A stretch of 64,000 nucleotides of DNA. Origin: a virus. Its lineage: Duplodnaviria; Caudoviricetes. Every line of letters starts with the position of its first letter. Position 1 is the stretch's first letter. Made by a program: the position numbers and the translations under genes. This document shows positions 5,866 to 47,117 of this stretch, in pieces. The stretch spans positions 29,312-93,311 of IMG/VR virus record IMGVR_UViG_3300013296_000013; one strand, given 5' to 3'. The notes beneath the pieces were generated by a model that was given only the letters and a program-made list of their open reading frames with translations, had not been told where the DNA came from and did not search any database.

Positions 5866-6098
5866 GCTATAAGCACAAAGTCGAGCTAGCGACTTTTCTA
5901 GATCCTGATAAGATCAGACGATATGCCGACGTCCAACACATCTGCGACGATGGTTACGTGATCGTTGTTTCGGACAATAAGTTCATGAGTATCCACATGA
6001 GCAAACTTACTCCATACGATCCTACTCTAATAGAGTATCGTAACATCGGTCAAGCTGACTGGCATCGATATGAAGAGTTAGGTATTCAGCTTGACTGA
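5862..6098 (+). CDS. Hypothetical protein
   Basis: ATGA overlap. Confidence 0.6.
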   Translation: MSYKHKVELATFLDPDKIRRYADVQHICDDGYVIVVSDNKFMSIHMSKLTPYDPTLIEYRNIGQADWHRYEELGIQLD

Positions 6099-6264
6099 AG
6101 AAAAGATGCTTCGCGATATCGCTTTTAATCTAGCGATGTGCGATATGGAATCTGGTAAAGACATCGACTACGCTCATCTAGATGATGCGAAAGAAATGGC
6201 TGACAAATGTGTCTAGAAATCGAGGGTCCTAGGAGATTTGAACGCCGTAGACCCATATTGAAAG

Positions 6265-29009: not shown

Positions 29010-29672
29010 TTACGCTGGTGGACCAGACGTGTCTGGTCCAGATTTAACAGCGGTATGAGTGTGATTATCAAGACTCTTTCCATTAGCAATAACATCACCC
29101 GAAGTTGTGATCTTTCCTGTCACATCGATGTCACAGCTAACTGTTAATTTTGATGCGTCGATAGTCATATCACCAGACGCAACTATAGATGCATCACCGT
29201 CGATATCTATCTCTACATCACCGCCTGTCGTAATATTTAAGTTTCCATCGATCTTAGCTGACATAGTTCCGTTAACCAAGGTTAACGAATCTCCTTCAGT
29301 CATGATAACACTGTCGCCTAGAGTGGCTATGGTGCTATCACCTTTAACAACTGTAGATAGATCACCTTGGACTTCAGCATATAGATCGCCCTGAACTACT
29401 AATTTAAGATTACCTCCGACCAAGATGTCTCCATTCTTGTCTATCGTCAGAGTTAATCCACCCTTAGTATATTTGTATTCGTCAGATACAACTAATTCTA
29501 CTTTACGCCCATCTGAACTTACTTCGAAAAATGTTCCAGATTTATGAGCTTGTCGTAGTCGTTCAGAGCCTGGTGTATCATCTATATGAAATTCATGTCC
29601 TGAACGACTAATACTAACTTGATTGAATGGATATTTTGCAGCAAATGTAGAATTTGGAAAACGTTCAGTCAT
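29010..29672 (-). CDS. Baseplate spike, gp5 C-terminal beta-helix part with HxH apex
   Basis: YPFNQV...SGH...DDTPG.ER...HKSGTF; VxGD repeats; LDNHTH. Confidence 0.85.
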   Translation of the reverse strand: MTERFPNSTFAAKYPFNQVSISRSGHEFHIDDTPGSERLRQAHKSGTFFEVSSDGRKVELVVSDEYKYTKGGLTLTIDKNGDILVGGNLKLVVQGDLYAEVQGDLSTVVKGDSTIATLGDSVIMTEGDSLTLVNGTMSAKIDGNLNITTGGDVEIDIDGDASIVASGDMTIDASKLTVSCDIDVTGKITTSGDVIANGKSLDNHTHTAVKSGPDTSGPPA

Positions 29673-42938: not shown

Positions 42939-43159
42939 ATGTCTATAGGAAGTCTAGCGGATCTCTTAAGGATGTTCATGTTTTCGGCTTCGATCTGAAG
43001 CTTAGACTTTAAAGCAGCGTCTTTCTTAATGAGTGATGCTGCTGTCTCTATGTCGATATTGTATTTCGAACACACATGAACAACAGCATCGATAATATCA
43101 GATCCACTACGCGTGAGCTTTTCGATCTCTTTAGCCATTTCAAAATTGAATTTAGACAA
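42935..43159 (-). CDS. Late transcription coactivator gp33
   Basis: IDAVV..C....IDIE......LKSKL..EA...N.L. Confidence 0.85.
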   Translation of the reverse strand: MSKFNFEMAKEIEKLTRSGSDIIDAVVHVCSKYNIDIETAASLIKKDAALKSKLQIEAENMNILKRSARLPIDI

Positions 43160-43161
43160 GA

Positions 43162-43425
43162 TTAGCTTTCATTTAGATCTAGATATAAGAGATGATTGTA
43201 ATCCATCCAAAGGATGGTTATAGCTTTGGCCCCAGCAAAATAGAGCATGTATTGAGCAAAAGATAGATCGAAAAAATAAGCAATTCCGACGATGAACATA
43301 TCGGATGCTAGAACTGATAGGATGAACGCGCCTCTAGCAACAGGTTGAGGCGTATAATAGATAGCTTCAGCTACTATGATTCGCGCAAAATACCATCCAG
43401 CAAGAATTAAAATGAACAATATCAT
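43162..43425 (-). CDS. Hypothetical membrane protein
   Basis: Three hydrophobic segments. Confidence 0.55.
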   Translation of the reverse strand: MILFILILAGWYFARIIVAEAIYYTPQPVARGAFILSVLASDMFIVGIAYFFDLSFAQYMLYFAGAKAITILWMDYNHLLYLDLNES

Positions 43426-43637
43426 TTAAGAAATAGTTGTTTCGCGTTATGTGGGTCGTCGCCGTCAGAACTAACAACGGCTTCTAATTGTCTAGCATAT
43501 TCGACCAATATTAAAAGATCATCACTACTAACATTAACGTTTGATGCAGATGTCTTAAGAACTTTTAGTTCGAGATCATCGATGAGTCGTGTCATCTTTA
43601 TATGCTGTTTTGGTGGTGTAGTCTTCTTTGCGCTCAT
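43422..43637 (-). CDS. Hypothetical protein
   Basis: AAGGA SD. Confidence 0.55.
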   Translation of the reverse strand: MSAKKTTPPKQHIKMTRLIDDLELKVLKTSASNVNVSSDDLLILVEYARQLEAVVSSDGDDPHNAKQLFLK

Positions 43638-43741
43638 TTAGGTGGTTCCTTGTTAGAGACCACTTATTTATGTGCGACAACTACTTATGGCATGTTTATG
43701 CTCTTTTGAGAAAAGAATATAGTCTTCAATCAAAGTAAATA

Positions 43742-43816
43742 TGGCGCCCTCGGCAGGAGTCGAACCCGCACCTGATTGTTTAGAAGACAATAGCTCTTCC
43801 ATTAAGCTACGAGGGC
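43742..43816 (-). tRNA. tRNA-Arg (UCU)
   Basis: GCCCTCG acceptor stem, anticodon loop CT-TCT-AA, GGTTCGACTCC T-arm, encoded CCA. Confidence 0.95.
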
Positions 43817-43828
43817 ATGAGAATATAT

Positions 43829-44026
43829 TTAGGAGTTTTTGAACAGAAATTCTAGGATCTTTTCGGATTCTTTGATCACATCGTCCGTAGTGACGATGTG
43901 ATCGTCACTACCTTTATGATGGCCTAGACGCCAAGCTTCGGCTGTTAGTTTGTTTTTGCGATCTAACACATCTTGTGCGATCTGCAAAGCAAACATTTTA
44001 ACTCGGATAGTATCTTCAGTGTTCAT
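43829..44026 (-). CDS. Hypothetical protein
   Basis: ORF. Confidence 0.55.
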   Translation of the reverse strand: MNTEDTIRVKMFALQIAQDVLDRKNKLTAEAWRLGHHKGSDDHIVTTDDVIKESEKILEFLFKNS

Positions 44027-44262
44027 AATTTATTTCGTCTCTGCTTTTCTTTATTAATTTCGTATACTGTATTGCCAAGTTTGCATGTGAATAAGCACAA
44101 TAGCAATGTGATGAACATCGGCCAAAGCACAGCACCAAAGAACAAGACCTCATCATCGAAATTATCTATGCCGTACAGAGCACACGCGAAGAAAGTAGTA
44201 ATCATAGCGCCTAATATATACAGCGCCAAAATGATGATAAAGATCATTGTTTCTTTCTCCAT
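44023..44262 (-). CDS. Membrane protein (W-P motif)
   Basis: 2 TM, LWP. Confidence 0.55.
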   Translation of the reverse strand: MEKETMIFIIILALYILGAMITTFFACALYGIDNFDDEVLFFGAVLWPMFITLLLCLFTCKLGNTVYEINKEKQRRNKL

Positions 44263-44480
44263 GCTGCTTCCTCGGCTTCCTCGTTATGCTTAAGAGCTAG
44301 AGTCTTAATGATGCTAATGAGATAATACCAGAAAGTTAACGGCCAAAAAACAAAAACAACTCCTATTGGAGCATCATCGCTCCCTGGTTCTCCGAATAAA
44401 CGGATCCAACAATAAGAGATGATTAATCCTATGGTCGTATAGATCAGAACAAATATGCTTATGAAGCCAAGAAAAGTCAT
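44244..44480 (-). CDS. Membrane protein (W-P motif)
   Basis: 2 TM, FWP. Confidence 0.55.
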   Translation of the reverse strand: MTFLGFISIFVLIYTTIGLIISYCWIRLFGEPGSDDAPIGVVFVFWPLTFWYYLISIIKTLALKHNEEAEEAAWRKKQ

Positions 44481-44494
44481 AACAAGCCTTTAGG

Positions 44495-44672
44495 AAAAGT
44501 GACGGCTTTCTGTTCCACGGTAGCCGTCGACCGGTGCGGTAGCCGTAGCTACCAAACAGCATTACGCAGCTAGTGCGAAATCCTGTGCAAGGACACTATT
44601 GTCATTTGCATTTATTATGTCAATCGGTTTCAACAATTTTATATCTAGCCAGACGATTCCCAGTACGCCCAC
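44495..44672 (-). ncRNA. ssrA: Two-piece tmRNA, coding piece (5' acceptor strand plus tag ORF)
   Basis: 5' GTGGGCG at 44672; tag 44609-44562 reads ANDNSVLAQDFALAA*; terminal structure near 44500-44550. Confidence 0.9.
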
Positions 44673-44673
44673 A

Positions 44674-45264
44674 TCATAAAATATGATACGGATTAACTAT
44701 CTTCAAATCATTAAGATATAATAACCTACGACTTTGAGAATTTTTACCTTCATCTAAATTCGTAAGTTTTCCACCTTTTCCTATTACTCCAAAGATGTCT
44801 ATGAGTTTGCTCTCTAAAGCAAAAGCTTCGCTAGAAGTTAAATTGCTTTTAACAATAGACACTTCAACATCTTTTCCATGAGTATTAAGACGTTGTTTTA
44901 TTTTACGGTGTGTTTCATTACGATTAACATCATAAGCTCTACTACCAGTTCCCTTTCCAATGTAGAAAGGAAAATGATTTAAACCTAACGTAGCGGCAAA
45001 AGCTACTTTGCCATCACGTTTAGTTTTGAGCAAAACTTTAGATGTATCACAGTGTGCATACACATAATAGTTACGATTTTGATTAGATTTGTCATACAAA
45101 TGAGAAATATCTGTTTCAAGAATATTCATACAAGCATTAAATATTTCTGCCTGTCTCTCAGATGTAGTTTTTCTTTCGGTGTCTAACATTAAAGCTCTAG
45201 ATTTAGCACGTTGCGCTAATTTTCTAACAGCTTCTATATCATCCCAATCTATGTCAATAATCAT
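44674..45264 (-). mobile_element. GIY-YIG family putative homing endonuclease inside the tmRNA intervening segment
   Basis: YYVYAH...PFYIGKG.G.RA...EAFALE..LI..FG...LTN; AT-rich. Confidence 0.85.
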
Positions 45265-45270
45265 AATTTA

Positions 45271-45350
45271 TGGTGTAGGCGAGGAGATTCGAACTCCTGT
45301 GCTGTTCCAGTTTAGTATTGCATCATTAACCTTATGACTAGATACTTATA
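45271..45350 (-). ncRNA. ssrA: Two-piece tmRNA, acceptor piece (T-arm plus CCA)
   Basis: AGGAG-TTCGAAT-CTCCT-CGCCTAC-A-CCA; pairs with GTGGGCG to give G3.U70; 5' end approximate. Confidence 0.85.
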
Positions 45351-45352
45351 TC

Positions 45353-45703
45353 CTAGTCTTCTTCAAATGTCAAGGACTTTTTAATGATCTTTCCACCGAG
45401 TTGCTGGATTATTCCAAGCAGTTTGCTCTCGAGATCTGCCTTCTTGTTATTGCAACGACCACAGAGTAGGGTGAAGTTCTCTTCACTATCTGTTCCACCG
45501 AGTCCACGAGAGATAATATGATCAGTCGTACACTTGTTATTAGGGTCTGCACCAAATGGATCATTGTGTGTTAGTTTGCGGCACTTGGGATTACGGCAAC
45601 ACGGATCTTCACGCCATGCAGCCAGTCGCCAGACTAGCCGATGGTAGTTGCGCATCGAAGAACGACGGTGTCCTTCATTATCATAGACCGTAGGCATTAG
45701 CAA
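45353..45703 (-). CDS. HNH endonuclease
   Basis: C....C, TTDHI....GG....N...LC..CN..K. Confidence 0.85.
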   Translation of the reverse strand: MLMPTVYDNEGHRRSSMRNYHRLVWRLAAWREDPCCRNPKCRKLTHNDPFGADPNNKCTTDHIISRGLGGTDSEENFTLLCGRCNNKKADLESKLLGIIQQLGGKIIKKSLTFEED

Positions 45704-45924
45704 GGACCACAGCTGAAATGGCTATTACGATCTAGCAGATATTCGAGCATATCAGCGACTAGATAATCGCTACCGATGTTATTGCCGCGAAGTTTGGTGA
45801 TGTACTCTCTAAACTTCTTATCACAGAGCATGCGCTTGCATTCCATCATTCCAGCTCCGGTCTCTTCGCGCAGCTTTTTAACATCGGATGCTTGTAGATT
45901 AGCATAGATCAAATTGTTATTCAC
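45697..45924 (-). CDS. Small protein with EF-Ts N-terminal (UBA-like) domain
   Basis: ASDVKKLREETGAGMMECKRML. Confidence 0.75.
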   Translation of the reverse strand: MNNNLIYANLQASDVKKLREETGAGMMECKRMLCDKKFREYITKLRGNNIGSDYLVADMLEYLLDRNSHFSCGPC

Positions 45925-47117
45925 TTTACTGCTCTCATAATGATCGTATTCTCGTTCATACGTTCTTGAAGTCTCTGATCAGAGCCATTGATGGTCTCCA
46001 TCAGCTTACGAAGAGTGACCTTACCACCCTTCAATACTTCGTTAAGAACATTTTGAACATCCTTAGCTTTCAGTTTCTTAGTCATCGACTGCATTTCATC
46101 GAAATTCGTGATTGCTGTACGATGTACATCGAGACCTCTTGGATCAGACGATCTGAAAACCGTCAACTGGTTGTACTTAACGTTGAACACCCATAGTTCA
46201 GACGAGCCGAGTATAGATTCAGGACTGACCGAGACGAGCTTGTTCGCGTTACACGACTTCATGTACTTGAAGTCCTTGAGCTTTTTATCAGCAGTCACAG
46301 GTTTTGTGGCTCTTGGCTTACGAACCTTCTTCTCGTTCTGCTGATAACGCTCAGCATCATCGATGAGCATCAGATAGAAGTCATACAGACGTTCTAGATG
46401 ATCACGCTTGTATGATGTATAACCTTCGACGATCTCAGGATCTGTCTTGTTATAAGCGTGTTCGATTTCTACGAGCTGTGGTTCATAGAAATCGAATACA
46501 CGCTTGGCCTGAACCGGTGGGAGATTGTTTGCTTTCATATGTTCATACAGGTCGAAGTTGTTAACCTCACCCATGATGACCTTATCGCACTCTTCTTCGA
46601 TACCACCGATGAACTCACTGAGAGCCTCGCGCATACGATCTTGCACGGTCAGCTTACGAACTTCGACGACCTTCTTCTCTTCAGGTTCGTCATCATCTGA
46701 TGAGACAGACATACGAGCCTTCGAGTAGTCTCGATCAAACAGCTCGGTCATCTTCTCTTCGAAGAACTCTCGAGTTCCTTCAGGAAGAATCGCGCCTCTA
46801 GACCACATACGAGCGACCCAGCAGGCCGTCGTCGGCATCCACTTGTCTGGAATGTTTGAAGCCTTCTTAGCCTCATCGAAACGAGCTGAGCTCTTCAGAT
46901 ATTCGATGAGATACTCTTTAGCTTCCTTAACGGTGGTACCCATCGCGGTGTACCAGTAGAGGTTGCGAGTATGTTGGCTGAAGGTAACTGGCTTCGAGGT
47001 GAAGATCGGCTCCATGCCGAAGTGCTTCATGTTGTAGAGGTAAAGCTCAGACTTTGTCTTCTTAGGAACAGCTGGCTTCTTCGTTGTCTTTTTGATGAGC
47101 GAGGGACGGCGTGCCAC
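45921..47117 (-). CDS. Conserved T4-like phage hypothetical protein
   Basis: C-terminal LVSV.P..I.G..ELWVFN.KY..L...S..KKL...R.NENTII. Confidence 0.8.
   Translation of the reverse strand: MARRPSLIKKTTKKPAVPKKTKSELYLYNMKHFGMEPIFTSKPVTFSQHTRNLYWYTAMGTTVKEAKEYLIEYLKSSARFDEAKKASNIPDKWMPTTACWVARMWSRGAILPEGTREFFEEKMTELFDRDYSKARMSVSSDDDEPEEKKVVEVRKLTVQDRMREALSEFIGGIEEECDKVIMGEVNNFDLYEHMKANNLPPVQAKRVFDFYEPQLVEIEHAYNKTDPEIVEGYTSYKRDHLERLYDFYLMLIDDAERYQQNEKKVRKPRATKPVTADKKLKDFKYMKSCNANKLVSVSPESILGSSELWVFNVKYNQLTVFRSSDPRGLDVHRTAITNFDEMQSMTKKLKAKDVQNVLNEVLKGGKVTLRKLMETINGSDQRLQERMNENTIIMRAVK

Follow-up and report, generated by a model that had tools for sequence, protein, structure and literature searches.

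A GIY-YIG homing endonuclease-like gene in the intervening segment of a permuted phage tmRNA gene

We analysed 64,000 nucleotides (nt) of viral DNA, called the window below (positions 29,312 to 93,311 of the IMG/VR record IMGVR_UViG_3300013296_000013; Duplodnaviria, Caudoviricetes), in which a gene for a 196-amino-acid (aa) GIY-YIG protein lies between the two pieces of a transfer-messenger RNA (tmRNA) gene. The locus is probably a functional two-piece tmRNA gene whose intervening segment, the part expected by analogy to be removed during tmRNA maturation, was occupied by the gene of a free-standing GIY-YIG homing endonuclease. On the - strand the order is the 3' end of an HNH open reading frame (ORF), a promoter, the tmRNA acceptor piece, 6 nt, the 196-aa ORF, 1 nt and the tmRNA coding piece, and the ORF takes up 591 of the 598 nt between the pieces. 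A preliminary description of this DNA, made from the letters alone, had proposed this layout for an alpha-type permuted tmRNA; each of its elements, together with the tag ANDNSVLAQDFALAA*, was recovered in place (Table 1), the stems covary and the fold of the protein could be modelled. The 93-kb record contains one tmRNA locus and one copy of the ORF. The same gene order with an identical ORF is present in an independent Logan assembly, which makes an assembly chimera unlikely.

Results

The separated pieces form a permuted tmRNA

The locus displays the hallmarks of an alpha-type permuted tmRNA, namely a 7-bp acceptor stem with the G3.U70 pair, an NCCA end and a tag with a resume codon and a hydrophobic C-terminal degron, and its coding piece carries a D-loop-like CTGGGAATCG. 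With the Rfam alpha_tmRNA model (RF01849) the coding piece alone reaches 41.5 bits (E 1.2e-9) against a gathering score of 50, and with RF04321 it reaches 31.4 bits against a cut-off of 47; the scores remain below the cut-offs since neither model bridges the 598-nt insert. A weak match to RF00023 (tmRNA) ends exactly at 45271. A scan for the T-arm/acceptor half returned 4 hits in the window compared with 1.3 in shuffled sequences, and the search for tRNA-like-domain halves is therefore unspecific when taken by itself.

The split layout recurs in two further lineages, represented by the relatives L013 and L019 (relatives are given by locus number). The acceptor stem reads GTGGGCG/CGCCTAC in the window, GTGGGTG/CACCTAC in L013 and GTGGATG/CATCTAC in L019, while the T-arms read AGGAG/CTCCT, GGGAG/CTCCC and GGGGG/CCCCC, respectively. 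Stems and T-arms thus show compensatory changes in three lineages across a separation of 598-691 nt. In RNAcofold the acceptor stem between the pieces is formed in 4/4 cases. The pairing of the coding piece, the compensatory changes and the orthology to the intact tmRNA of a close relative, L104 (see below), together identify the locus as tmRNA, and judged by these comparisons it is a real and probably functional alpha-type permuted two-piece tmRNA gene of an uncultured T4-like phage.

A sigma-70-like element (TTGACA-17 nt-TATAAG) is located 5' of the acceptor piece, where it overlaps the 3' end of the HNH ORF. It was not listed by the promoter scan, since position 6 of its second hexamer is G, and it is common to the window and L104. 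This element would act as the tmRNA promoter, and the putative 5' end of the acceptor piece was placed from its position. Scanning between the two tmRNA pieces revealed no promoter or terminator of note within the intervening segment. The preliminary description had also likened CATAAATT, which overlaps the CCA, to the late promoter. This idea found no support: L013 has CCAAAAACT instead, and TATAAATA is not enriched in the window.

Table 1. Coordinates of the split tmRNA locus and the adjoining HNH gene, numbered from the first letter of the window
Feature	Position	Strand	Remarks
HNH endonuclease gene	45353..45703	-	Pfam HNH, E 7e-9; directly upstream of the putative tmRNA promoter
Putative sigma-70-like promoter, TTGACA-17 nt-TATAAG	45345..45373	-	TTGACA 45373-45368, TATAAG 45350-45345; read from sequence
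tmRNA acceptor piece, ~70 nt	45271..45340	-	RF00023 match ends at its last base; homologous to the L104 acceptor piece
T-arm AGGAG-TTCGAAT-CTCCT	45298-45282	-	read from sequence
3' acceptor strand CGCCTAC	45281-45275	-	read from sequence
Discriminator A, then CCA	45274; 45273-45271	-	read from sequence
Spacer TAAATT, 6 nt		-	between CCA and ORF; read from sequence
Intervening segment, 598 nt	44673..45270	-	between the two tmRNA pieces; 591 nt are the ORF
196-aa GIY-YIG nuclease gene	44674..45264	-	read as free-standing homing endonuclease of a tmRNA-associated family
Spacer, 1 nt		-	between ORF stop codon and G44672; read from sequence
tmRNA coding piece, ~178 nt	44495..44672	-	alpha_tmRNA match (scores in text)
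5' acceptor strand GTGGGCG	44672-44666	-	pairs with CGCCTAC, 7 bp including G3.U70
Tag reading frame	44562..44609	-	GCA resume codon, ANDNSVLAQDFALAA, TAA; translation
UNCG hairpin	44553-44538	-	in the coding piece; covaries in a four-way alignment
3' hairpin with loop ACCGTGGAACAGAA	44528-44501	-	covaries around the conserved loop in the four-way alignment

The ORF product resembles GIY-YIG nucleases

The 196-aa protein scores 24 bits with Pfam PF22945 (LEM-3-like GIY-YIG) and thus stays below the cut-off of 27; PF22945 is matched at E <= 0.01 by 12 of 22 members of its family. In PHROGs it corresponds to phrog_314, annotated 'homing endonuclease', and NCBIfam gave no match. A search of 5.8 billion proteins yielded at least 518 homologues at E <= 0.001, which among the matches listed are 43-59% identical and nearly all full-length. 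Y67, Y69, Y101, R109, H119, E151 and N169 are invariant in 22 aligned members, and by analogy the invariant Tyr, Arg, Glu and Asn positions would correspond to an intact catalytic set.

The AlphaFold (AF2) model of the protein is confident (predicted local distance difference test, pLDDT, 93.7). When its residues 62-172 are compared by VIA-align, the Z-scores are 7.1 for PD-T4-3, 6.4 for the catalytic domain of I-TevI (root mean square deviation 2.3 over 81 residues), 4.5 for UvrC and 4.4 for T4 EndoII, and unrelated rows reach 3.4 at most. In Foldseek against the PDB the top rows are all GIY-YIG, but their E-values are weak (0.01 or worse). As modelled, the protein has the GIY-YIG alpha/beta fold. 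The GC content of the ORF is 33% compared with 38-47% in its flanks. We read the ORF product as a free-standing homing endonuclease with predicted nuclease activity.

A related phage carries the tmRNA without the ORF

The closest relative found is L104, whose copy of a 398-aa neighbour protein is 76% identical to that of the window. ARAGORN detects a permuted tmRNA in L104 with the tag ANDNTVLAQDFALAA, which scores 96.5 bits with RF04321 and 77.4 bits with RF01849, both above the cut-offs. Its intervening segment (6019-6225) comprises 207 nt without an ORF; the ends of this segment form an 11-14-nt terminal inverted repeat, TCAACACAGAT / ATCTGTGTTGTTGA, and its content matches no Rfam family. 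Remnants of the nuclease ORF were found neither in the L104 locus nor in that of the further relative L105. The preliminary description had suggested comparing related ssrA loci for empty alleles, whose absence, combined with a lack of site-specific cleavage by the protein, it took to count against its reading, and L104 is such an allele: as for a homing gene, presence and absence occur at the same locus, with L104 sharing the promoter and the tmRNA but having neither the ORF nor a remnant of it.

From 5' to 3', the window and L104 are 79% identical over 34 nt at the promoter, 52% in the 5' part of the acceptor piece, 64% in the T-arm and acceptor strand, 57% in the 5' part of the coding piece beyond the ORF (63 nt versus 83 nt) and 90% from the resume codon to the 3' end; for neighbouring protein genes the nucleotide identity is about 35-50%. 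Normally no part of a tmRNA is better conserved than the tRNA-like domain, yet in this pair it is this domain, lying to either side of the ORF, that has diverged. This mosaic, seen in one sequence pair, fits what would be expected of a homing-associated replacement (co-conversion) tract. The drop in identity beside the ORF would suit the co-conversion tracts that the preliminary description had suggested looking for, but it is a single comparison with indistinct boundaries.

Further searches started from other parts of the locus. Neither blastn of the window locus against deposited phages nor an IMG/VR search for related loci with the 398-aa neighbour protein produced a match, and an exact-pattern scan of IMG/VR with a 27-mer of the acceptor piece gave zero hits. 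The 10 IMG/VR hits to an 18-mer of the tag were rejected: Rfam finds no tmRNA in 9/9 searched, and the tenth (L004) looks like coding sequence by eye.

The ORF belongs to a tmRNA-associated family

Genomic contexts were drawn from homologues looked up by identity, from 23 full-length IMG/VR loci and from 51 metagenome loci, and were examined with ARAGORN, Rfam and a custom scan. A permuted phage tmRNA lies directly beside the ORF in ~60 of ~75 sampled loci. Taken separately, ~20 of the 23 IMG/VR loci and ~44 of ~48 assessable metagenome loci have one in this place. Most commonly the ORF stops at the 5' end of an intact, same-strand permuted tmRNA or within a few tens of nt of it, and the intervening segment of that tmRNA measures 5-92 nt. 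The adjacent tmRNAs are of alpha-like or beta-like types. In a few loci the tmRNA is located just upstream of the ORF (L042, L045, L046, L152-L156), at two it is divergent (L024, L040), and in a few there is none nearby (L027, L041, L043). The preliminary description missed this context, i.e. a large tmRNA-associated family whose usual site is upstream of an intact tmRNA, as well as the T4 segB precedent discussed below.

Position within the intervening segment is restricted to three lineages, those of the window, of L013/L014 and of L019/L020, and no further case occurs among the 51 metagenome loci. The ORFs of these lineages are 46-54% identical. The window and L013 have the segment length of 598 nt and the 6-nt and 1-nt spacers in common; in L019 the segment has 691 nt. 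The L019 ORF follows a spacer of 72 nt that contains two hairpins and a Shine-Dalgarno site, unlike the nearly leaderless mRNA that the preliminary description envisaged for the window, and its last 11 codons including the stop (2619-2651) overlap the first 33 nt of the coding piece (GTGGATG...). The protein tree places L013, whose ORF is inside the segment, as sister to L012, whose ORF lies upstream of the tmRNA (support 96/85), and the two phages are syntenic. The position of the ORF therefore shifts between close relatives.

In two further loci, L147 (817-966, 1731-1997) and L139 (981-1150, 1806-1944), the ORF is preceded by a truncated tRNA-like domain and followed by a complete permuted tmRNA. 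The truncated domain consists of the acceptor piece, the intervening segment and the first 14-40 nt of the coding piece. These remnants look like footprints of a nuclease-plus-tmRNA cassette that invaded a resident tmRNA gene, and they may indicate how the in-segment layout could arise.

In L021-L023 (1847-2683) the ORF is situated between tRNA-Ala and tRNA-Ser and its stop codon lies 1 nt before the tRNA, the same 1-nt abutment as in the window and an arrangement that resembles T4 segB. Full-length family members are absent from 50,697 deposited phage genomes, while 53 two-piece tmRNAs have been counted among phage genomes (PMC9004378); the distribution of the family is thus sporadic. From these contexts, the family appears to be specialised on phage tmRNA genes, usually in the 5' leader of the tmRNA, with the in-segment position a rarer solution of the same kind.

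The survey also produced observations on tRNA and tmRNA detection. ARAGORN calls a tRNA with a CTA anticodon ('Pyl', amber suppressor-like) at 684-759 in L021-L023, and one in L037 too. Several relatives missed by this program (L012, L018, L026-L038 and others) have non-canonical T-loops such as GGCAGAA, TGCAATT and AGCATAA. Many phage permuted tmRNAs above the RF04321 cut-off are missed by ARAGORN, and counts of phage tmRNAs based on it are probably too low.

Discussion

Proposed mechanism

We propose that one promoter would drive a precursor of ~850 nt comprising the acceptor piece, the ORF and the coding piece. The distant halves of the tRNA-like domain would come together in the 7-bp acceptor stem, which contains G3.U70 and adjoins the T-arm. 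RNase P would then cut 5' of G44672, 1 nt past the ORF stop codon, and 3' trimming would expose the CCA at 45271, whereby the ORF-bearing segment would be discarded without an intron or intein. At the DNA level, the protein is predicted to cut ORF-less phage ssrA alleles in or near the DNA encoding the tRNA-like domain, and repair would copy in the ORF together with flanking tmRNA sequence. Cleavage near the T-arm/CCA DNA and copying with flanks are modelled here on SegB.

Co-transcription of the pieces is consistent with the lack of a promoter or terminator of note between them, with the stop codon abutting G1 and with the L019 ORF, which reads 33 nt into the coding piece. If L019 is processed in the same way, RNase P cleavage would leave a nuclease mRNA without a stop codon.

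A wider generalisation is possible but doubtful. The discarded parts of phage tmRNA precursors, i.e. the 5' leader and the intervening segment, might in general serve as splicing-free safe harbours, settled independently by several unrelated families of nucleases, and expression of the nuclease might also be wired to tmRNA maturation. A single nt separates the stop codon from the predicted RNase P site in three cases, the window, L013 and L021 of the tRNA cluster, and in L019 the tmRNA itself might tag the product of the non-stop mRNA for degradation.

Alternative explanations

Several points weigh against a functional tmRNA gene occupied by a homing endonuclease. The window reaches neither Rfam cut-off, and ARAGORN finds no tmRNA in the native region or after in-silico deletion of the ORF. 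The deletion check had been proposed in the preliminary description; we ran it on 70 deletions leaving 0-150 nt and 0-60 nt of the segment, and nothing was detected in any of them. As ARAGORN also misses intact relatives above the Rfam threshold (L012, L018), this null result is uninformative. I-TevI and the Seg enzymes typically have a long C-terminal DNA-binding domain, which is missing from the protein; it has only a 60-aa N-terminal helical part, and its nuclease activity and target site are predicted by analogy. The single precursor, the RNase P cut at G44672 and the trimming to the CCA at 45271 would follow what is known of bacterial permuted tmRNAs (Keiler et al. 2000, as cited in PMC9004378 and PMC11915505), from which the ends are taken. 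Some of the difference between the tRNA-like domains of the window and L104 may be ordinary divergence, not a conversion tract, and its 5' boundary is indistinct. Finally, the tight linkage to tmRNA throughout the family would also fit a functional partnership.

Such a partnership would make the GIY-YIG protein a non-selfish accessory of the tmRNA module, which might for example destroy the host ssrA gene or host tmRNA/tRNA and would be kept adjacent for co-expression. The linkage holds among members that are only 36-59% identical and extends across alpha-like and beta-like tmRNAs, the ORF is within the tmRNA transcription unit, and the protein is small and devoid of a classical homing-endonuclease DNA-binding domain, all of which would suit an accessory. 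We nevertheless regard it as unlikely. L104, the closest relative, has an intact tmRNA but no ORF, deposited phage genomes lack the family although many of them have two-piece tmRNAs, and some members reside in tRNA clusters or away from tmRNA (L021, L027, L041, L043). Moreover, the change of position between sister genes and the truncated tmRNA remnants are signs of mobility.

It is also conceivable, if quite improbable, that the tmRNA pieces are separate transcription units or that the coding piece has its own start, with the ORF an ordinary gene between them and no excision of a segment. A mature two-piece tmRNA is bimolecular in any case, and a weak TTGAAG-17-TATTTT in the 3' end of the ORF would start transcription near G44672. 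We rejected this candidate as a promoter of the coding piece: it matches 8/12 positions, which is below the scan threshold, and is not conserved in L013. L104 and known permuted tmRNAs have a single promoter before the acceptor piece. The stop codon lies 1 nt from G1 in the window and L013, and in L019 the extension of the ORF into the coding piece implies read-through transcription.

That the insertion inactivated the tmRNA and left two decaying relics has a very slight chance of being correct: while the sub-threshold Rfam scores, the ARAGORN result and the non-canonical T-loops of L013 and L019 (GGCAGAA, TGCAATT) would be compatible with decay, the separated stems still pair through compensatory changes in three lineages with ORFs 46-54% identical, identity to L104 is 90% for the tag and 3' structure compared with about 35-50% for neighbouring protein genes, and the T-loop of the window is canonical (TTCGAAT).

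Relation to known systems

The closest precedent for the occupied tmRNA gene is T4 segB, a free-standing homing endonuclease gene of the tRNA gene cluster whose mRNA is part of a tRNA precursor. At the 3' end of tRNA genes its product recognises the T-arm motif GGTTCRANTCC plus CCAR; close relatives lack SegB, which is inherited preferentially (PMC2330249). In T4 the layout is tRNA-Ile, 41 nt, segB, 5 nt, tRNA-Arg. As in the window, where CCA, 6 nt, ORF, 1 nt and G1 follow one another, a GIY-YIG gene is placed between tRNA-like modules on the same strand. The two cases differ in that the flanks in the window are two halves of one functional RNA, so that the ORF sits inside a gene, and in that the target gene is a tmRNA. 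Membership in the SegB sequence family was considered and rejected, since BLASTP gives E 5.9 and hhalign a probability of 0.25%; the proteins are related at superfamily level only. By this comparison the window ORF is SegB-like in logic, not in sequence.

Circularly permuted two-piece tmRNA genes are known from Alphaproteobacteria (Keiler et al. 2000, as cited in PMC9004378). The window shares with the alphaproteobacterial and phage forms (RF01849, RF04321) the order of acceptor and coding pieces, the G3.U70 stem, the encoded CCA, the ANDN...ALAA tag and the 3' hairpin loop ACC.UGGAACAGAA. Unlike the segments of sampled relatives, which comprise 5 to ~207 nt and are non-coding, that of the window has 598 nt and is protein-coding. 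A 2025 paper on a tmRNA database covering 97,179 sequences, 79 of them from phages, gives a tRNA-Ala and a repetitive element as the only unusual contents of permuted segments, and describes homing endonuclease genes only in T-loop group I introns, where they are of the LAGLIDADG class (PMC11915505).

Those introns resemble the window in placing a homing endonuclease gene within a tmRNA gene and in its removal at the RNA level. They differ from it in three respects: the window has no ribozyme, and host tRNA-processing enzymes would remove the segment; the nuclease is of another class; and the ORF follows the CCA instead of lying in the T-loop. An ORF borne by a group I intron was rejected, as the ORF fills 591 of the 598 nt and Rfam reveals no intron family at E <= 1 in 43000-47000. 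This agrees with the claim in the preliminary description that neither an intron nor an intein is involved, there being no signature of either in that search. The preliminary description further knew of no account of the arrangement, and our full-text literature searches likewise found no published description of a tmRNA/ssrA segment with a GIY-YIG nuclease.

What is new here is probably a free-standing homing endonuclease that exploits tRNA-type processing inside a permuted tmRNA, together with a large, undescribed tmRNA-associated family of GIY-YIG proteins; the logic as such is known from segB. After introns and inteins, borrowed tRNA-processing cuts would be a third means by which a selfish nuclease gene can reside inside an essential-type gene without harm. 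The unnamed family, with more than 500 members, would be a marker of phage tmRNA genes, whose transfer from phage to phage it probably drives. The arrangement would also explain why ARAGORN and the Rfam cut-offs miss such tmRNA genes, and it may offer a natural system to study how far apart the halves of a tRNA-like domain can lie and yet be recognised by RNase P.

Neighbouring genes

The HNH gene that directly precedes the tmRNA promoter has 80-88% nucleotide identity to its copy in L104 (5426-5725), compared with about 35-50% for the surrounding genes, and looks like a second, recently exchanged mobile nuclease. In L104 an extra 60-aa ORF separates the HNH gene from the tmRNA promoter. In the more distant L105, whose neighbour protein is 54% identical, three protein genes follow the HNH gene; ARAGORN finds no tmRNA in this 9-kb locus, where Rfam was not run. 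The tmRNA itself may be sporadic in this phage group. A tRNA-Arg(TCT) gene at 43742-43816 (- strand), ~680 nt downstream of the tmRNA, has a nearly identical copy at the same relative position in L104.

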